From the NCBI GenBank assembly GCA_035268905.1, contig DATFJY010000284.1, positions 1,718-65,717 of the forward strand: a stretch of 64,000 nt of DNA, written 5' to 3'. Below the pieces are notes generated by a model. The model was not told the origin of the DNA, ran no database searches, and saw only the letters and a list, made by a program, of their open reading frames with translations. A program made the translations under genes and the position numbers. Below are positions 5,992 through 61,159 of the stretch, in pieces (the first letter of the stretch is position 1; each line of letters starts with the position of its first letter). This DNA comes from Desulfotignum sp. (GTDB taxonomy: Bacteria > Desulfobacterota > Desulfobacteria > Desulfobacterales > Desulfobacteraceae).

Positions 5992-6068
<77 letters not shown>

Positions 6069-7537: not shown

Positions 7538-7702
7538 GGTTCCGGCTGGCAGGCCGGTAAGCAGGCGATTCTGATCGGTCGCCTTGTAACAGAAGGCCAT
7601 GAACCTCGTCAGGTCCGGAAGGAAGCAGCGATAAGTGATCTCTTCTGTGTCAAGGATCGATCCCGGTCATGCAATTGCCTGACACCCCCTGTCAGCCGGT
7701 TC
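7538..7702 (+). ncRNA. ffs: Signal recognition particle RNA, ~165 nt
   Basis: Helix-8 signature GTCAGGTCCGGAAGGAAGCAGC (7608-7629); nested complementary arms out to CCGGCTGGCAGG/CCTGTCAGCCGG; T-run follows. Confidence 0.92.
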
Positions 7703-16575: not shown

Positions 16576-16685
16576 CTGGATATTTGCCGCAAGCATACCA
16601 GAATTTCAGTCTTTCTGAGCAGCACCCCATCTCAGGATACCACCAGGGGCTTCATAGTGTGCACGCTCCTGTAACAAATATGCAG
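16576..16685. mobile_element. MITE, short form (copy A)
   Basis: TIRs CTGGATATTTG / CAAATATGCAG; 8-bp direct repeat CTGATGTT at 16568-16575 and 16686-16693; colinear with both ends of the 26575-26836 copy. Confidence 0.8.
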
Positions 16686-22000: not shown

Positions 22001-22086
22001 CTGGATATTTGCCATAGCAGCATACCCGCTATGGGGAGTCCCTGGTGGTGTCCTGTGAACGGACCGTCAGATTCGGAGGGGGCCGG
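22001..22086 (+). mobile_element. Truncated MITE (copy C): one TIR plus one arm of the hairpin module
   Basis: CTGGATATTTGCCATAGCAGC...CCCTGGTGGTGTCCTGTGAACGGACCGTCAGA...GGAGGGGGCC aligns with the reverse complement of 26755-26836. Confidence 0.8.
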
Positions 22087-26335: not shown

Positions 26336-26574
26336 AACACGTTCCTTTTGTTTCATTGTTTTTTTAGAAGCGATTCCATCATAATGAAGTAAACATGAAT
26401 CCTTCAAAGTCATGCCTGTATATGGGGTCATGTGCTGCAATCGATTTATAAGATTCATTTTTAAGCAGTATATCACATTTTTTCAATTTTCACACCTTTT
26501 CTCCGGTGAAAAACAAAGGCTGTTCCATGAAACGTTCTCCCGGCAGGGATCCCTCCCCGGACGCTATCTTTGGT

Positions 26575-26836
26575 CTGGATATTTGCTATAAGCAACCCGG
26601 GTTTTTGACCTTTTGCTGCAGCACTCTGTCGCCGGTCCCGCCCCTGGTGATATCCTGTGCCCGGCCCGAGACCCTTCGGGGGCCCGGTTCCATGTGAATA
26701 ATGAAATACAGCGATCCAATCTCTGACTTCAAAGCATCCCGGCATATTTTACCAGGCCCCCTCCGGCTCTGATGGTCCGTTCACAGGACACCACCAGGGG
26801 CTCCTTAGCGTGTACGCTGCTATCGCAAATATGCAG
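26575..26836. mobile_element. MITE, long form (copy B, 262 bp) carrying the palindromic hairpin module
   Basis: TIRs CTGGATATTTG (26575) / CAAATATGCAG (to 26836); imperfect flanking repeat CTTTGGT/CTCTGGT; internal inverted arms 26641-26659 and 26782-26800. Confidence 0.8.
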
Positions 26837-26915
26837 CTCTGGTCAAAGCCATTGCAAATTTGATACAGATGCACTAATTTGGACAGCAGGCTGCATAGCA
26901 TCCCGAAAACCCAAC

Positions 26916-47304: not shown

Positions 47305-47577
47305 GCCGCCAGGGCATGGGTGATGATACAAAAGCTGTTACTGTTAGCCGTTAGCCGTTAGCTGTTAGCTGTTAGCTGTTAGTACGCAATTATTCGCTAC
47401 CAGTAACCAAAATTTCCCCTGCTGTTACCACCGGCTAACGCTTTCATACTTTGTTGTACCTGCCAGGGCATGGGGGATTATATGAAAGCGGTCAGTACTC
47501 GGTCATCAGCCAAGAACTAAAAGCTAACAGCTAACAGCTTTCACGTTTTGTTGTGCCCGTCAGGGCATGGTCGTTAT
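47305..47577 (+). repeat. Head-to-tail tandem of heptamer-rich elements (tail + H2a + H2b)
   Basis: (GTTAGCT/C)n; three GCC(A)GGGCATGG tails; heads at ~47326 and 47482. Confidence 0.85.
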
Positions 47578-48474: not shown

Positions 48475-49252
48475 ATGCATCCGATGGGAAACTGCCCTGC
48501 TGTACCTCATCGACATAGGCTGCCAGCCCTTTTTTTGCTGCTGCTGCCAGGTCTGCGTATTGTTTCACAAATTTGGGCAGAAACCGGTCATTGATGCCCA
48601 GCATGTCATGGAGCACCAGGATCTGGCCGTCGCAGTGGGGGCCGGCACCGATACCGATGGTGGGTATTGTCAGGGCCTGGGTGATTTTTTGGGAAATAGG
48701 GGAGGGGATCCCCTCCAGGACAACAGAAAAAGCACCGGCTGCTTCCACATCCTGTGCATCTTTGAGCAGCCGCTTTTCATCCCGCTGCACCTTGAACCCG
48801 CCCATCTGGTGCACCGACTGGGGGGTAAGGCCGATATGGGCCTGGACCGGTATGCCGGCTTTGGCAACCGCCGTGATCACCGGGCAGACATCCGCCCCGC
48901 CCTCAAGCTTGACTGCGGCAGCGCCTGCCTCCTTTAAAAACCGGCCGGCATTTTCCACGGCAGCATCCAGAGACCCCTGGTAAGACATGAATGGCATATC
49001 CCCCACCACCAGGGCACGGGAACAGCCCCGGGAAACCATGGCAGTATGATAAATGATTTCATCCATGGTCACGGACAGGGTGTTGGGTTTGCCCTGGACC
49101 ACCATTCCCAGGGAATCTCCCACCAGGACCGTGTCGATACCGGCTTGATCCAGCATCCGTGCAAACGGAAAATCATAAGCCGTCAGCGCGGTGATTTTTT
49201 TGCCTTCCTGTTTCATTTTCATCAGTGTTGATACGGTTACCTGTGGCTGCAT
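48461..49252 (-). CDS. panB: 3-methyl-2-oxobutanoate hydroxymethyltransferase
   Basis: [36 protein letters not shown]. Confidence 0.97.
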
Positions 49253-49273
49253 GGCCTTTTCCCTCCAATTTAT

Positions 49274-49415
49274 ATGAAAGCTGTTAGCTGTTAGCCCTTA
49301 GCGATTAGCTATTAGTAGTACGCAATCATTCGCTTCCAGTAAACAAAATTTCCTTGCTGTTATCACCGGCTAACGCTTTCATACTTTGTTTTGCCCGCCA
49401 GGGCATGGGTGTTAT
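49274..49415 (+). repeat. Heptamer-rich element (copy H3)
   Basis: 49317-49409 matches 47381-47474 at about 90% (hand count). Confidence 0.85.
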
Positions 49416-49483: not shown

Positions 49484-49598
49484 CTGAATGTTTGCCATAA
49501 GCGTACCATATTTTAATTCGTTCCATAGGGTGTCCTTGTCCCAAGCCTACCCCTGTCAAGGTTCTTGTGATACACAATCCATTATAGCGAATATCCAG
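49484..49598. mobile_element. Diverged short MITE (copy G)
   Basis: Ends CTGAATGTTTGCCATAAGCGTACC / GCGAATATCCAG; left end 19/24 identical to copy A; similar length; no target duplication visible. Confidence 0.6.
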
Positions 49599-49651
49599 TA
49601 TTCGGTGTCAAGATAATCGTATGTAGATGCAGCGTCACATATATTGAAAAG

Positions 49652-49723
49652 CCCCCTGAGGGTGCCGTGTGACAGGACCGTCAGATGCCAATCTCGGGCC
49701 GGTCACACGGCACCCTCAGGGGG
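49652..49723 (+). repeat. Stand-alone hairpin module (copy E)
   Basis: Perfect 22-bp arms around AGGACCGTCAGATGCCAATCTCGGGCCG. Confidence 0.85.
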
Positions 49724-49732
49724 GGGCAGCAA

Positions 49733-51949
49733 TCAATCAGACAGGATCGGGGCACTTGCGCTGACCGTGCGGCACCACTGCTGGTACTGGTGCATGCTGG
49801 ACAACGCTTTGACCGCGCGTTCCGGTGAGGGAAAAAAGACCCCTTTATATTCCAGATCTTCATACCGGTACAGGGTCTGGCTGCGGGCATCGGTGAGCAG
49901 GCTGACCCCCAGGACGGGTTTGCTGTATTTTTGTGTCATCTCCACCACATACCGTGTATAGGCTTCTTCAAATTCCAGTATTATCTGTTTGAAGCCTGCC
50001 ACCTGTTCTTTGGAAATCGACGGGTCAGTTTCGGCAATGGATTTGGCCATGTTATCAACCAGGACCCGTTTGCCATGGATCCCCAGGTGAATGACCGCAT
50101 CACACCCGTCCCATTTGAGCAGTGCCTCCAGGCATGTTTTGGGGACTTCCGGATCGCCCTCCCCCACCAGGTCCACAGGATTCCCATGGCTCCAGAAGTC
50201 CGGAAGAACAGCATTCAGGCGTTCTATGATATCTTCTGACAGCGGCGGCACCACCAGCCCGTATTCCGCGCACAGATCCGTGGCGATCACCCCCCAGCCG
50301 CCCCCTAAGGTCATGATAGCCACCCGGTTGCCCCGGGGCAGCGGCAGGGAAGAAAACACCGCAGACAGGTCCAGCAGTTCCATGGGCTGGTTCACCTGGA
50401 TGATGCCGGCCTGGCGGCAGGCAGCATCAAACACCCGGGCATTGGATGCCATGGCACCGGTATGGCTGGCCGCAGCCTGCTCCCCTCTTGCGGTGCGGCC
50501 GCCCTTGAGCACCACCACCGGTTTTTTTGTGGATACCCGCCTGGCACTGTTGAAAAACCGCCGGCCGTCCTTGACGCTTTCAATATACAGGACCACGGTA
50601 CGGGTAAGGGCATCTATTTCAAAGGCCTCCATATAGTCTTCAATGGTGACCATGGCCTCATTCCCGGATCCGGAAAAGGCCCGGATGCCGATTCCCTGCT
50701 GCTCGGCAAAAGCCAGAAGCTGGGTGCCCATGTTACCGGACTGGCTCACCAGGGCGGTGGACCCGGGAATGGGATAGGCATGGGCAGCACTGCAGTAAAT
50801 ATCTGCATGGGGATTGCACATGCCCATGGTGTTGGGTCCCAGAATCAGGATACCGGCTTTTCGTGCCGCTTCCACCAGTGCTTCTTCCAGTGCTGCACCC
50901 TGGTCTCCCACCTCCCGGAATCCGGAAGTGATGAGCAGCATCCCTTTTACCTTTTTGGCCCCCAGTTCCGGGATCAGGTCCATGACATGCCGGGCCGGTA
51001 CCGTGACCACAGCCAGATCCACATCTGCGGGGATGTCGGAGACCGACCGGTACACCTGCCTGTCCATGATGGTCCCGCCTCTGGGATTCACCAGATACAC
51101 CTTTCCCTTGTAATCCCGGGACAACGTATTGGCAGGCAGCATGTGCCCCCATTTTCCCGGTGTCGCAGATGCCCCCACAAAGGCAATGGATTCCGGATAG
51201 AAACACGCCCCCAGTGTTTTCAGATCAATGCGGGGAGACAACCCGTTTTGCCTGGCAGGGGGACCGGTGATGATAAGCCCGTCCACTGCCACCGGGGCGC
51301 CGTCAGGCTGGATAATCAGGGGGTTGATATCAATTTCTCTGATCTGAGGCCAGGTGACTGCCAGATCGGAAAGCCCTTTTAAAACAGCCTTTATTGCCTG
51401 TATATCACAGCCAGCTTCCCCTCTGAAGGCCCGGAGTATTCCGCTACCGGCAAAGGATCTCAGCATATCATCCATGTCCGCCTCATTCAAAGGCGCAATT
51501 TTAAAGACAATATCTGCCAGCACCTCGGTGAATATTCCCCCCAAACCGAACATGATTACCGGCCCGAACTGGGGATCCCTGAACATCCCGGCAACCAGTT
51601 CGCGTTTTCCCTGCACCATGGGCTGCACCAGAAATCCTTCCACCGCATTGCCTTCACTGGCCGTCATTTTTCGGGCTGCAGCCATGACCTGTTCTTTTGT
51701 AAAAAGTCCCAGGTGCACCAGGTCTGCTTCTGTTTTATGCAACACCGCTGCCCCCATACCCTTGAGCACCACGGGAAACCCTGATGCCGCCGCTGCCCGG
51801 GCCGCATCTTCCGGAGTTTTTGCGTCATACTCTTTGACTACCGGCATGCCCATGGCCTTGAAAATCTCTTTGGCATCAGCTTCTGTTATGTATTTTTGGT
51901 TTTCCTGTGCAGCCCTATCCAGGACCGCTGCAATATCAATGGCTTCCAT
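49733..51949 (-). CDS. ADP-forming acyl-CoA synthetase, ATP-grasp (beta) domain first
   Basis: N-terminal VVLK...HKTE..LV ATP-grasp, EIDINPL; then CoA-binding domain, GPNTMG, SQSGN, phospho-His ASHTGA, NPVD. Confidence 0.9.
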   Translation of the reverse strand: MEAIDIAAVLDRAAQENQKYITEADAKEIFKAMGMPVVKEYDAKTPEDAARAAAASGFPVVLKGMGAAVLHKTEADLVHLGLFTKEQVMAAARKMTASEGNAVEGFLVQPMVQGKRELVAGMFRDPQFGPVIMFGLGGIFTEVLADIVFKIAPLNEADMDDMLRSFAGSGILRAFRGEAGCDIQAIKAVLKGLSDLAVTWPQIREIDINPLIIQPDGAPVAVDGLIITGPPARQNGLSPRIDLKTLGACFYPESIAFVGASATPGKWGHMLPANTLSRDYKGKVYLVNPRGGTIMDRQVYRSVSDIPADVDLAVVTVPARHVMDLIPELGAKKVKGMLLITSGFREVGDQGAALEEALVEAARKAGILILGPNTMGMCNPHADIYCSAAHAYPIPGSTALVSQSGNMGTQLLAFAEQQGIGIRAFSGSGNEAMVTIEDYMEAFEIDALTRTVVLYIESVKDGRRFFNSARRVSTKKPVVVLKGGRTARGEQAAASHTGAMASNARVFDAACRQAGIIQVNQPMELLDLSAVFSSLPLPRGNRVAIMTLGGGWGVIATDLCAEYGLVVPPLSEDIIERLNAVLPDFWSHGNPVDLVGEGDPEVPKTCLEALLKWDGCDAVIHLGIHGKRVLVDNMAKSIAETDPSISKEQVAGFKQIILEFEEAYTRYVVEMTQKYSKPVLGVSLLTDARSQTLYRYEDLEYKGVFFPSPERAVKALSSMHQYQQWCRTVSASAPILSD

Positions 51950-52599: not shown

Positions 52600-52738
52600 A
52601 AAACACCAATCTGTCAAGAACAAATGCTCACCCCCCAACGTGGAAAACCCGCAACCCAATTGACCCGCCTCATTCTCTCTTTTTTTGACAGGAACGGAAG
52701 CGTCAGAGAACAGTATTTGGTAATGCTGGACAAACCAG

Positions 52739-52894
52739 CCCCTGGTGGTGCCCTGTGAACGGACCGTCAGAGCCGGAGGGGCAACCCGAACAAGCCAGGA
52801 TCTAAAGTACTATCCGGCTGCCCGGTTTATATCTGAAATTATCATCGTAACCGCCCCGCAGGATCTCGGACCGGGCACAGGGCACCACCAGGGG
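52739..52894 (+). repeat. Hairpin module, long form (copy D)
   Basis: Perfect 19-bp arms CCCCTGGTGGTGCCCTGTG/CACAGGGCACCACCAGGGG, conserved core, 70-nt inner segment. Confidence 0.85.
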
Positions 52895-53095
52895 CGGCAT
52901 CCTTGCCAATATCCTGACAAAACCGAACGAAATACCCATTGTCAAATAAAAATCCCTGCAAACCGGCCTTTGTGCCTGCAGATACCATGTAATCTTTAAA
53001 TAACAGGAAGCTAGTGAAAATCCCACACAGGTATGATAAGGTGCGCTCCCATGAAATGCCCGGCCAATATATCATCGCCAATAAGGACGGTTCCC

Positions 53096-61087: not shown

Positions 61088-61159
61088 CCCCTGTAGGCAA
61101 CCTGAACACGGCCCGAGATTGCATAATCTGACGGTCCGTGTTCAGGTTGCCAACAGGGG
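61088..61159 (-). repeat. Stand-alone hairpin module (copy F)
   Basis: 24-bp arms (1 mismatch); reverse complement core CGGACCGTCAGATTATGCAATCTCGGGCCG. Confidence 0.85.

Follow-up and report, generated by a model that had tools for sequence, protein, structure and literature searches.

A hairpin with a divergent loop of near-constant length is very probably the middle of a small mobile element (MITE) in Desulfotignum

Introduction

An imperfect hairpin recurs in a 64-kb stretch of Desulfotignum DNA (64,000 nucleotides in all, referred to here as the window) in two long forms, termed B and D, and two short forms, termed E and F. The long forms share a highly similar scaffold and enclose 70 nt each that differ almost completely between them, which raises the question of what this segment is and what kind of element carries it. 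The original prediction was that the scaffold might hold an exchangeable insert of constrained size, as REPIN spacers and the variable terminal structures of integron attC sites do, or that the center of the hairpin simply diverges faster than its surroundings. REPINs are described as hairpin repeats with a middle less conserved than the arms, compensatory changes in the stem and an apparently conserved length (PMC3116915). Prokaryotic MITEs, in turn, are defined by size, terminal inverted repeats (TIRs), a target duplication and the lack of a transposase gene (PMC11602168).

The assembly that contains the window comprises 3.69 Mb in 379 contigs and is 97.98% complete. From its analysis, and from comparison with other genomes of the genus, we conclude with high confidence that the hairpin with its apparent variable insert forms the folded middle part of a small noncoding mobile element (MITE) present in about 120 copies in this genome. 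With equal confidence we regard the full unit as an internal-deletion derivative of a 2.5-kb insertion sequence (IS), and the center of about 70 to 75 nt as the hairpin loop of that IS, inherited and not exchanged.

Results

The hairpin module and its copies in the window

Rereading the sequence at B and D bore out the coordinates and strings of the hairpin module as first described. In D (52738 to 52895, plus strand; from the repeat search and the fold), AGAGCCGGAGGGGC runs to 52782 and is followed by the 70-nt center (52783 to 52852, plus strand) and then by GCCCCGCAGG. B has the same structure on the minus strand (scaffold arms and center, 26640 to 26801; repeat search and fold), with ...CCTTCGGGGGCC reaching 26684, the 70-nt center at 26685 to 26754 and GGCCCCCTCCGGCTCT after it. 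The repeat search placed the outer arms at 26640 to 26667 and 26774 to 26801 in B and at 52738 to 52766 and 52867 to 52895 in D. The short patches reported as common to the two centers are present (GCCGGGAT/GCCAGGAT and CATGGAACC/CATCGTAACC), and the contrast between a similar scaffold and a divergent center holds, with identities of 0.90 and 0.54, respectively, against 0.49 ± 0.03 for shuffled centers under the same global aligner. As single-stranded DNA, the D module was predicted to fold with −48.6 kcal/mol (z = −7.9) and the whole B unit with −56.9 kcal/mol (z = −4.7), and in both cases none of 200 shuffles was as good. The end motif of the module occurs 13 times in the window, where 3.4 occurrences were expected. 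In E and F, a short loop does sit at the tip as had been noted, but its length of 6 to 7 nt was not confirmed for both, the loop between the AGAT/ATCT pairs being 4 nt (GCCA) in E and 6 nt in F.

Long modules lie between terminal inverted repeats and target duplications

What had not been seen at first is that the repeat does not stop at the hairpin but reaches terminal inverted repeats flanked by target duplications. Pairing the blastn matches of both scaffold arms across the genome gave 146 modules, 120 of them long (153 to 163 nt, mode 158 to 159 nt), 25 short (66 to 76 nt) and one of 433 nt. Their lengths are sharply bimodal, none falling between 76 and 153 nt. A blastn search with the whole module returned 159 full-length matches (120 unique loci plus 39 second-strand duplicates) and some match at 157 places. 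In an alignment of 112 copies, conservation extended past the hairpin by about 38 nt to the left and about 66 nt to the right, up to inverted ends CTGGATATTTGCCATA(A)GCA, and 62 of the 87 TIR pairs in the genome are 260 to 279 bp apart, with units of 262 to 265 bp at the mode. The full unit, which we call MITE-A, is about 263 bp long and consists of a TIR (CTGGATATTTGCCATA...), a short linker, the imperfect hairpin of about 158 nt, a longer linker and the second TIR, flanked by a 7- to 8-bp target duplication.

The B module lies inside a 262-bp MITE whose ends are CTGGATATTTGC...GCAAATATGCAG and which is flanked by a 7-bp target duplication. The whole copy (26575 to 26836, minus strand; ends CTGGATATTTGCTATAAGCA ... 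GCTATCGCAAATATGCAG) was delimited by the 112-copy alignment, the TIR pairs, an empty site and the alignment to the left end of the parent IS described below. The left target-site duplication, CTTTGGT, occupies 26568 to 26574, and the right one, CTCTGGT, 26837 to 26843, with one mismatch to the left copy. The exact empty site was found in a congener (G068:C3, where a single CTTTGGC stands at the unoccupied site): CTTTGGT, the unit at 26575 to 26836, then CTCTGGT CAAAGCC in our genome corresponds to GCCTTTGGC CAAAGCC there.

Genome-wide, 64 of the 112 long copies with enough flank have recognizable ends. A direct repeat of at least 5 nt abuts these ends in 40 of the 64, and 30 of those repeats are 7 to 8 nt long (19 of 7 nt and 11 of 8 nt), while mispaired flanks, used as the control, gave about 1.9 of 64; no duplication of at least 5 nt was seen in the other 24 copies (none at all in 23, 3 nt in one). 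The D locus is unoccupied in two congeners (G076 and G073) with fuzzy break points, and D itself has only degenerate TIR-like ends and fuzzy borders; the full D unit (CAGTATTTGGTAATGC ... TTGCCAATATCCTG, 52711 to 52916, plus strand) is tentative and its borders uncertain. The region with E and a neighboring 115-bp unit is missing from all five congeners searched. At the three loci tested (B, D and E), no orthologous occupied site was found in congeners.

The copies are dispersed over many contigs and do not form arrays. Outside open reading frames (ORFs) of at least 110 amino acids lie 102 of the 120 long modules, at a crude coding density of 0.85. The ORFs on the two sides are divergent in 48 cases, tandem in 22 + 16 and convergent in 13, with no clear orientation bias relative to genes (22 versus 16 in the tandem contexts). 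With its size (within 50 to 800 bp, no transposase gene), TIRs of at least 10 to 15 bp, a target duplication within 2 to 10 bp and insertion polymorphism, MITE-A is a new family of a well-known kind. The elements also break the assembly in which they were found, 14 strong unpaired scaffold arms lying within 200 nt of contig ends.

Further MITE-A sequences in the window are incomplete. A copy of about 110 bp (16576 to 16685, minus strand) keeps both ends and, by comparison with the consensus, only the last 20 nt or so of the hairpin; a truncated copy (22001 to 22084, plus strand), recognized as a strong unpaired left arm (C284:23756), has the left TIR, the linker and the left scaffold arm up to GGAGGGGGCC; and at 49484 to 49598 (minus strand) a TIR pair of the MITE-A type, 115 bp in extent and one of five pairs of 110 to 115 bp in the genome, lacks the hairpin module precisely, with the junction CAGGGG/TAGGC. 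This last unit has E on one side and on the other, at about 49250 to 49415, another dispersed repeat with paralogous matches of about 80 to 82% identity in congeners (G075:C236 and G067:C12); since the repeat, the 115-bp unit and E are jointly absent from the orthologous site, three elements stand side by side here.

Some other features were recorded along the way. The window contains a tRNA gene (5992 to 6065) and a small SRP RNA gene (7573 to 7669), which matched Rfam with 67.4 and 62.2 bits, respectively. At 47353 to 47539 there are two inverted arrays of the heptamer GCTGTTA (AGCTGTTAGCTGTTAGC.../...GCTAACAGCTAACAGCT), and comparable heptamer runs adjoin hairpin units at other places of the genome (C32:6635 and the left flanks of C290:34589 and C37:11764). 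The right-linker consensus of MITE-A contains TGGCATGCTTATGGCA (alignment columns about 287 to 302), reading outward with a GG-N10-GC spacing, which we take to be that of a sigma-54 −24/−12 promoter; the motif is not kept in B, where the corresponding stretch, at about 26590 to 26610, is degenerate.

The center of the hairpin

Fixed anchors allowed 115 of the 120 long modules to be split into scaffold and center; these anchors make the center about 5 nt longer than in the first description. Center lengths in the 115 copies fall between 70 and 78 nt (75 nt in 54 copies and 76 nt in 30), a narrow distribution where a broad one would have spoken against an insert of constrained size. Clustering divided the centers into seven discrete types with 86, 22, 2, 2, 1, 1 and 1 copies. 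The B center belongs to the commonest (cluster 7, minus strand; supported also by the parent-IS alignment) and the D center (plus strand) to a rare type with two copies (cluster 1), of which three more were found among modules sampled from nine other genomes. Within the two large types, centers align end to end with about 0.75 identity, at scaffold identities of 0.91 and 0.87; between types, center identity drops to 0.518 ± 0.032 (2,667 pairs), no better than the 0.49 of shuffled sequence, at a scaffold identity of 0.857. By eye, the first 20 nt or so and the last 15 nt or so of the center keep short common patches, which the middle of about 40 nt does not.

These data speak against an insert that is exchanged: 86 of the 115 anchored long copies have one and the same center type and 22 another, centers of one type align end to end, and the B center aligns end to end with that of a parent IS in a congener. 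The alternative, that the center diverges faster, applies between the old types (0.52 for the center versus 0.86 for the scaffold) but was not seen among the closest copies. In the 37 closest pairs of copies (mean identity, 93.8%), the center has 0.055 substitutions per site, compared to 0.031 and 0.052 for the two scaffold halves, 0.054 and 0.093 for the TIRs and 0.09 for the linkers. Since the center is not faster in these pairs, its excess divergence is that of old lineages and not of recent decay, and the centers of B and D differ because they descend from different old sub-lineages of the MITE. Judged by these alignments, the centers are not cassettes and are inherited with the element; the 70 to 75 nt taken for an insert are very probably the unpaired loop of the hairpin. 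No conserved pairing inside the center was predicted by RNAalifold in either the 86-copy or the 22-copy type, and on whole modules alifold kept only the basal stem.

A loop that merely drifts leaves one observation unexplained, namely, that centers which cannot be aligned with each other keep lengths of about 72 to 77 nt across the seven types, whose median lengths range from 73 to 77 nt. The linkers of the same elements vary far more in length, by 1.3- to 3-fold (left end plus linker, 38 versus 50 nt in the two large types; right side, 66 nt versus 22 nt in D), and since the center is narrower in length than the linkers, a length constraint is possible. A sample from the genus (61 long modules from nine other Desulfotignum genomes plus 65 from our own, each required to have an exact 20-mer and the right arm) gave the same picture, with 88 to 101 nt, mostly 93 to 96 nt, from anchor to anchor in 126 modules of 11 types. 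It is therefore a serious, though still minority, possibility that the loop is selected for length and the scaffold for shape, any sequence being tolerated as long as either about 75 nt or about 4 nt stands at the tip; the 70- to 78-nt centers of the unalignable types and the gap from 76 to 153 nt among the 146 arm pairs fit this idea, and the same logic has been stated for REPIN spacers (PMC3116915). Its weight is reduced by one type with a center about 6 nt longer (98 to 100 nt from anchor to anchor), by rare intermediates (47 nt in another genome) and deletion derivatives of 66 to 68 nt, by the loop having yielded no structure or protein site, and by the types perhaps being few independent samples, five of the seven having only one or two copies. 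The loop is free in sequence, then, and perhaps not in length.

A candidate parent insertion sequence in congeners

A genus-wide search for DDE_Tnp_1 domains, followed by a motif scan, identified a 2,520-bp element in a congener (G076:C6, locus L291) with the ends CTGGATATTTGCTATAAGCA...TATAGCAAATATCCAG, the same as those of MITE-A. Its single ORF of 562 amino acids (P0002) matches Pfam DDE_Tnp_1 with 59.5 bits (cutoff, 23); the curated IS-family models were not reached, IS4 (NF033592) scoring 32.9 bits against a cutoff of 115. The left 230 nt of this IS, made up of the end, a 67-nt linker and the long hairpin in full, align with B over 231 columns with 193 identities (83.5%), the center included. 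Past this IS-like part, B has a short junction and then the other inverted repeat. On the evidence of the alignment, MITE-A looks to be the left end of the IS plus the right TIR, with the appearance of an internal-deletion derivative. A second copy of the parent IS, 97.5% identical, is present in another congener (G019), and the similarity of the two stops at the TIR; a clean target duplication was not seen at the L291 copy. Just inside the right inverted repeat, at 2560 to 2740 of L291, lies a short and degenerate relative of the hairpin module (CCTGCCGGACCGCCAGAATAATCGGTCTCC ... GGCACAAGGCATATCCAGGGACT), and both ends of the IS may therefore carry module-like subterminal repeats.

Our own genome matches the L291 IS only over its first 230 nt or so and its last 100 nt or so, and neither a transposase of the parent type nor any DDE_Tnp_1 protein was found in the assembly (97.98% complete, 379 contigs). 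A search of this genome for an autonomous element among TIR pairs up to 6 kb apart gave only a pair around hflK/hflC-like genes, and the inner sequences beside 246 TIR matches contained no recurrent IS-like class. Relatives of P0002 occur in 4 of 21 other genomes of the genus, in two of them as fragments. Three congeners with high contiguity (G061, G062 and G072) have few TIR matches, and nothing but fragments or MITE copies turned up in four regions taken from G061 and G072.

In another genus (G054), a homologous IS shares this end but lacks the hairpin and is interrupted by an unrelated IS4-family element. The protein of the latter, P0001 (724 amino acids), was considered as the partner transposase and rejected, as it belongs to a separate element nested in the P0002-type IS that owns the matching end; neither its DDE part nor PF14706 was found in 22 genomes of the genus. 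The P0001 ORF (3661 to 5835 of L084, G054:C1:1225500-1232500) combines DruA (Druantia), a Tn5-type DNA-binding domain and an IS4-family DDE domain (NF033590, 303 bits). Our own genome has a stand-alone DruA/DUF4338-like ORF of 311 amino acids (1408 to 2343 of L085, G000:C224:22894-26724) that shares 31% identity with the N-terminal part of P0001; no transposase domain adjoins it.

The mechanism that we propose starts from a 2.5-kb IS that would encode one DDE_Tnp_1 transposase and carry the long hairpin in full, placed between its left end and the gene for that enzyme. MITE-A would arise from such an IS by internal deletion and keep the loop, and a transposase supplied in trans would cut and paste the MITE, as suggested by the TIRs, the target duplications and the empty sites.

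Short forms have the ends of a second type of insertion sequence

E and F lie in a different unit of 161 to 164 bp with the ends CAGGGTAATCGCATG...CATGCGATGGCCCTG, termed MITE-B. E is a 161-bp copy (49609 to 49769, plus strand; ends CAAGATAATCGTATG ... CTTGCGCTGACCGTG) with its short hairpin at 49652 to 49723; as described above, the orthologous site lacks it in the five congeners, and its ends match those of an ISAs1-family IS. The short hairpin of F (61088 to 61159, minus strand; repeat search and sequence) is in a unit of the MITE-B type with a TIR-like end, GGGCAATCGCATGTAAC, from about 61040. The MITE-B ends, CAGGG(T/C)AATCGCATGTA, match both ends of an ISAs1-family IS in a congener (G074; IRL CAGGGCAATCGCATGTAAAT, IRR ...TTACTTGCGTTGGCCCTG), the transposase of which matches NF033564 with 451.8 bits against a cutoff of 70 and which has no hairpin core. 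ISAs1 elements produce target duplications of 8 to 10 bp. In MITE-B, duplications of 8 and 10 nt were found in 2 of the 12 copies of our genome with both ends, and duplications of 6 to 10 nt in 6 of 14 such copies from other genomes, at a control rate of 1.7%; the 14 copies were those, among 84 short cores, with both ends within 3 mismatches. E and F, the short forms, belong to a second MITE family, which has ISAs1-type ends and a 70-nt version of the same core.

A drifting loop also does not account for two further observations: the same core sits in MITEs with the ends of two IS families, and the hairpin is absent from the related IS of G054. One could suppose instead that the hairpin core is no IS debris but a portable, selected structural module of DNA or RNA with a function of its own, marked by an invariant asymmetric motif near the tip, a covarying 19-bp stem and a loop of only about 4 or about 75 nt, and captured separately by the IS, by its MITE and by the ISAs1-type MITE. 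We consider this improbable, even though several observations speak for it. The invariant core GGACCGTCAGA(T)...(A)TCTCGGGCCGG, with the same mismatches and TC bulge, occurs in units ending in CTGGATATTTGC... as well as in units ending in CAGGGTAATCGCATG...; the ISAs1-family IS that matches the second kind of ends (451.8 bits) and the homologous IS of the other genus are themselves without the module; it is precisely missing from the five TIR pairs of 110 to 115 bp; and the rare center types have neither kind of end nearby. Against it, no copy was seen inserted as a bare hairpin, the units without a module are explained equally well by slippage between CAGGG repeats at the base of the hairpin, and the motif GCAGCGT, common to the linkers of both MITE families, may point to common descent instead of capture; the core also has no Rfam match and an orientation relative to genes that looks random.

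Distribution of the module

Among 185,579 species genomes scanned, a 20-mer of the long arm was found at 79 loci or more, all in Desulfotignum records, and the short-core pattern at 84 loci, 83 of them in Desulfotignum records and one in a Desulfobacteraceae MAG. Among the matches listed, the core thus appears to be confined to the genus, that one short-core locus excepted. The B unit was matched in 6 of 61 genomes of the family, namely, our own, three of four congeners and, partially only, two of other genera. No module was found in phages, plasmids or viral contigs; the 83 viral matches to a 16-nt end motif appear to be fortuitous, and the core was absent from all 80 loci checked.

A conserved and base-paired scaffold

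In every form, GGACCGTCAGA...TCTCGGGCCGG is kept together with its mismatches and TC bulge, while the 19-bp basal stem varies and stays paired. In 211 distinct modules, 97.0% of the cells of the 19 stem pairs were paired, compared to 88.3% in shuffles, and 256 cells had changes on both sides, compared to 32 ± 5 in shuffles; all 19 pairs had such double changes, in counts that are inflated by shared descent. A scaffold that is conserved and base-paired between lineages, with a loop whose middle has diverged to saturation, suggests that the scaffold is a cis-acting feature needed for propagation. We see about an even chance that it acts as folded or cruciform DNA recognized by the transposase or a host factor, the other half being divided between a role at the RNA level, in the leader of the IS, and no function at all. 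At the gathering threshold, the tRNA and the SRP RNA were the only Rfam matches in the window, and 26540 to 26900 gave no match up to E = 10.

Discussion

Both MITE families share some properties with known systems. The 5'-CT ends, 7- to 8-bp target duplications and AT-rich flanks of MITE-A resemble those of IS-derived MITEs of DDE_Tnp_1 IS (the IS4-like superfamily), of which the ISPepr1 subgroup is described with 5'-CT ends, duplications of 7 to 8 bp and AT-rich flanks, and IS50 with duplications of 8 to 9 bp (PMC2266710); in contrast, P0002 reaches no IS4 model, and the parent IS is 2.5 kb long with a 160-nt hairpin upstream of its gene. MITE-B resembles the ISAs1 family in that its ends match both IRL and IRR and some copies have 8- to 10-nt target duplications, and it differs in that the IS lacks the hairpin core and duplications were found in few copies (the 2 of 12 and 6 of 14 given above).

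In overall design, the elements resemble the Correia elements of Neisseria (CREE/nemis), which are also small and noncoding, have inverted-repeat ends and a target duplication, exceed 100 copies, are mostly intergenic and fall into discrete length classes. CREE length classes of 153 to 157, 104 to 108 and 69 to 73 bp are given in PMC2649163, with an internal segment in the long class only, and no transposase is described as demonstrated in the host. The sequences are unrelated, however, and the hosts belong to different phyla. MITE-A has a parent IS in congeners and duplications of 7 to 8 bp, it encloses a long hairpin with covarying stems, and in Desulfotignum the ends differ between the long and the short class.

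The comparison to REPINs and attC sites made in the original prediction holds at the level of appearance. As in REPINs, the middle of the MITE-A hairpin is less conserved, the stems covary and the length seems to be kept; REPINs, however, have no TIRs with target duplication and are tied to a flanking RAYT gene, whereas the Desulfotignum modules have duplications and no Y1 gene near. Like attC sites, the modules are imperfectly palindromic, have unpaired bases and differ in the sequence of their central part; attC sites, however, stand in cassette arrays beside intI, whereas the copies here are dispersed, bounded by TIRs and duplications, and accompanied by no IntI at the cutoff. REPINs and their RAYTs use a Y1 single-strand mechanism, with insertion that leaves no TIR-bounded target duplication, and attC sites have R''-L''/L'-R' core sites with defined extrahelical bases; to our knowledge, neither Y1 transposases nor integron integrases make target-site duplications together with TIRs. 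We give next to no credence to the modules being REPINs moved by a REP-associated tyrosine transposase, or attC-like sites, and have rejected both identities: imperfect hairpins with unpaired bases and a variable center, and two Y1_Tnp genes in the genome (145 and 129 bits), might have suggested them, but this reading is contradicted by the 7- to 8-bp target duplications abutting the TIRs; in addition, the 2-kb loci of the two Y1 genes contain no module motif (the nearest module lies 21 kb away on one contig, and the other contig has none), no integron integrase was found in our genome (best TIGR02249 score, 75 bits; cutoff, 265), and the copies are dispersed without arrays. The two Y1_Tnp genes, of the IS200 type and encoding about 150 amino acids, lie at G000:C14:203-559 and G000:C209:12493-12846 (L080 and L081) and are unrelated to the hairpin modules.

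Reading the hairpin as the inherited middle of a MITE removes a false lead, since no cassette-like variable insert is present here. It also defines two Desulfotignum MITE families, with their borders, target duplications and candidate parent insertion sequences, that to judge from the portion of the literature available to us, in which we found no description of either, are unreported. About half of the long copies lie between divergently transcribed genes (48 of the 99 with two flanking ORFs), and the elements are therefore relevant to annotation and possibly to regulation. For specialists in mobile DNA, the points of interest are a loop length that is constant across unalignable sequences and a single hairpin core common to MITEs of two transposase families; should the core indeed be portable, this pattern would be in keeping with a factor that is specific for structure, for instance a nuclease or a protein binding cruciforms or hairpins, and that boosts the propagation of the inverted repeats surrounding the core.
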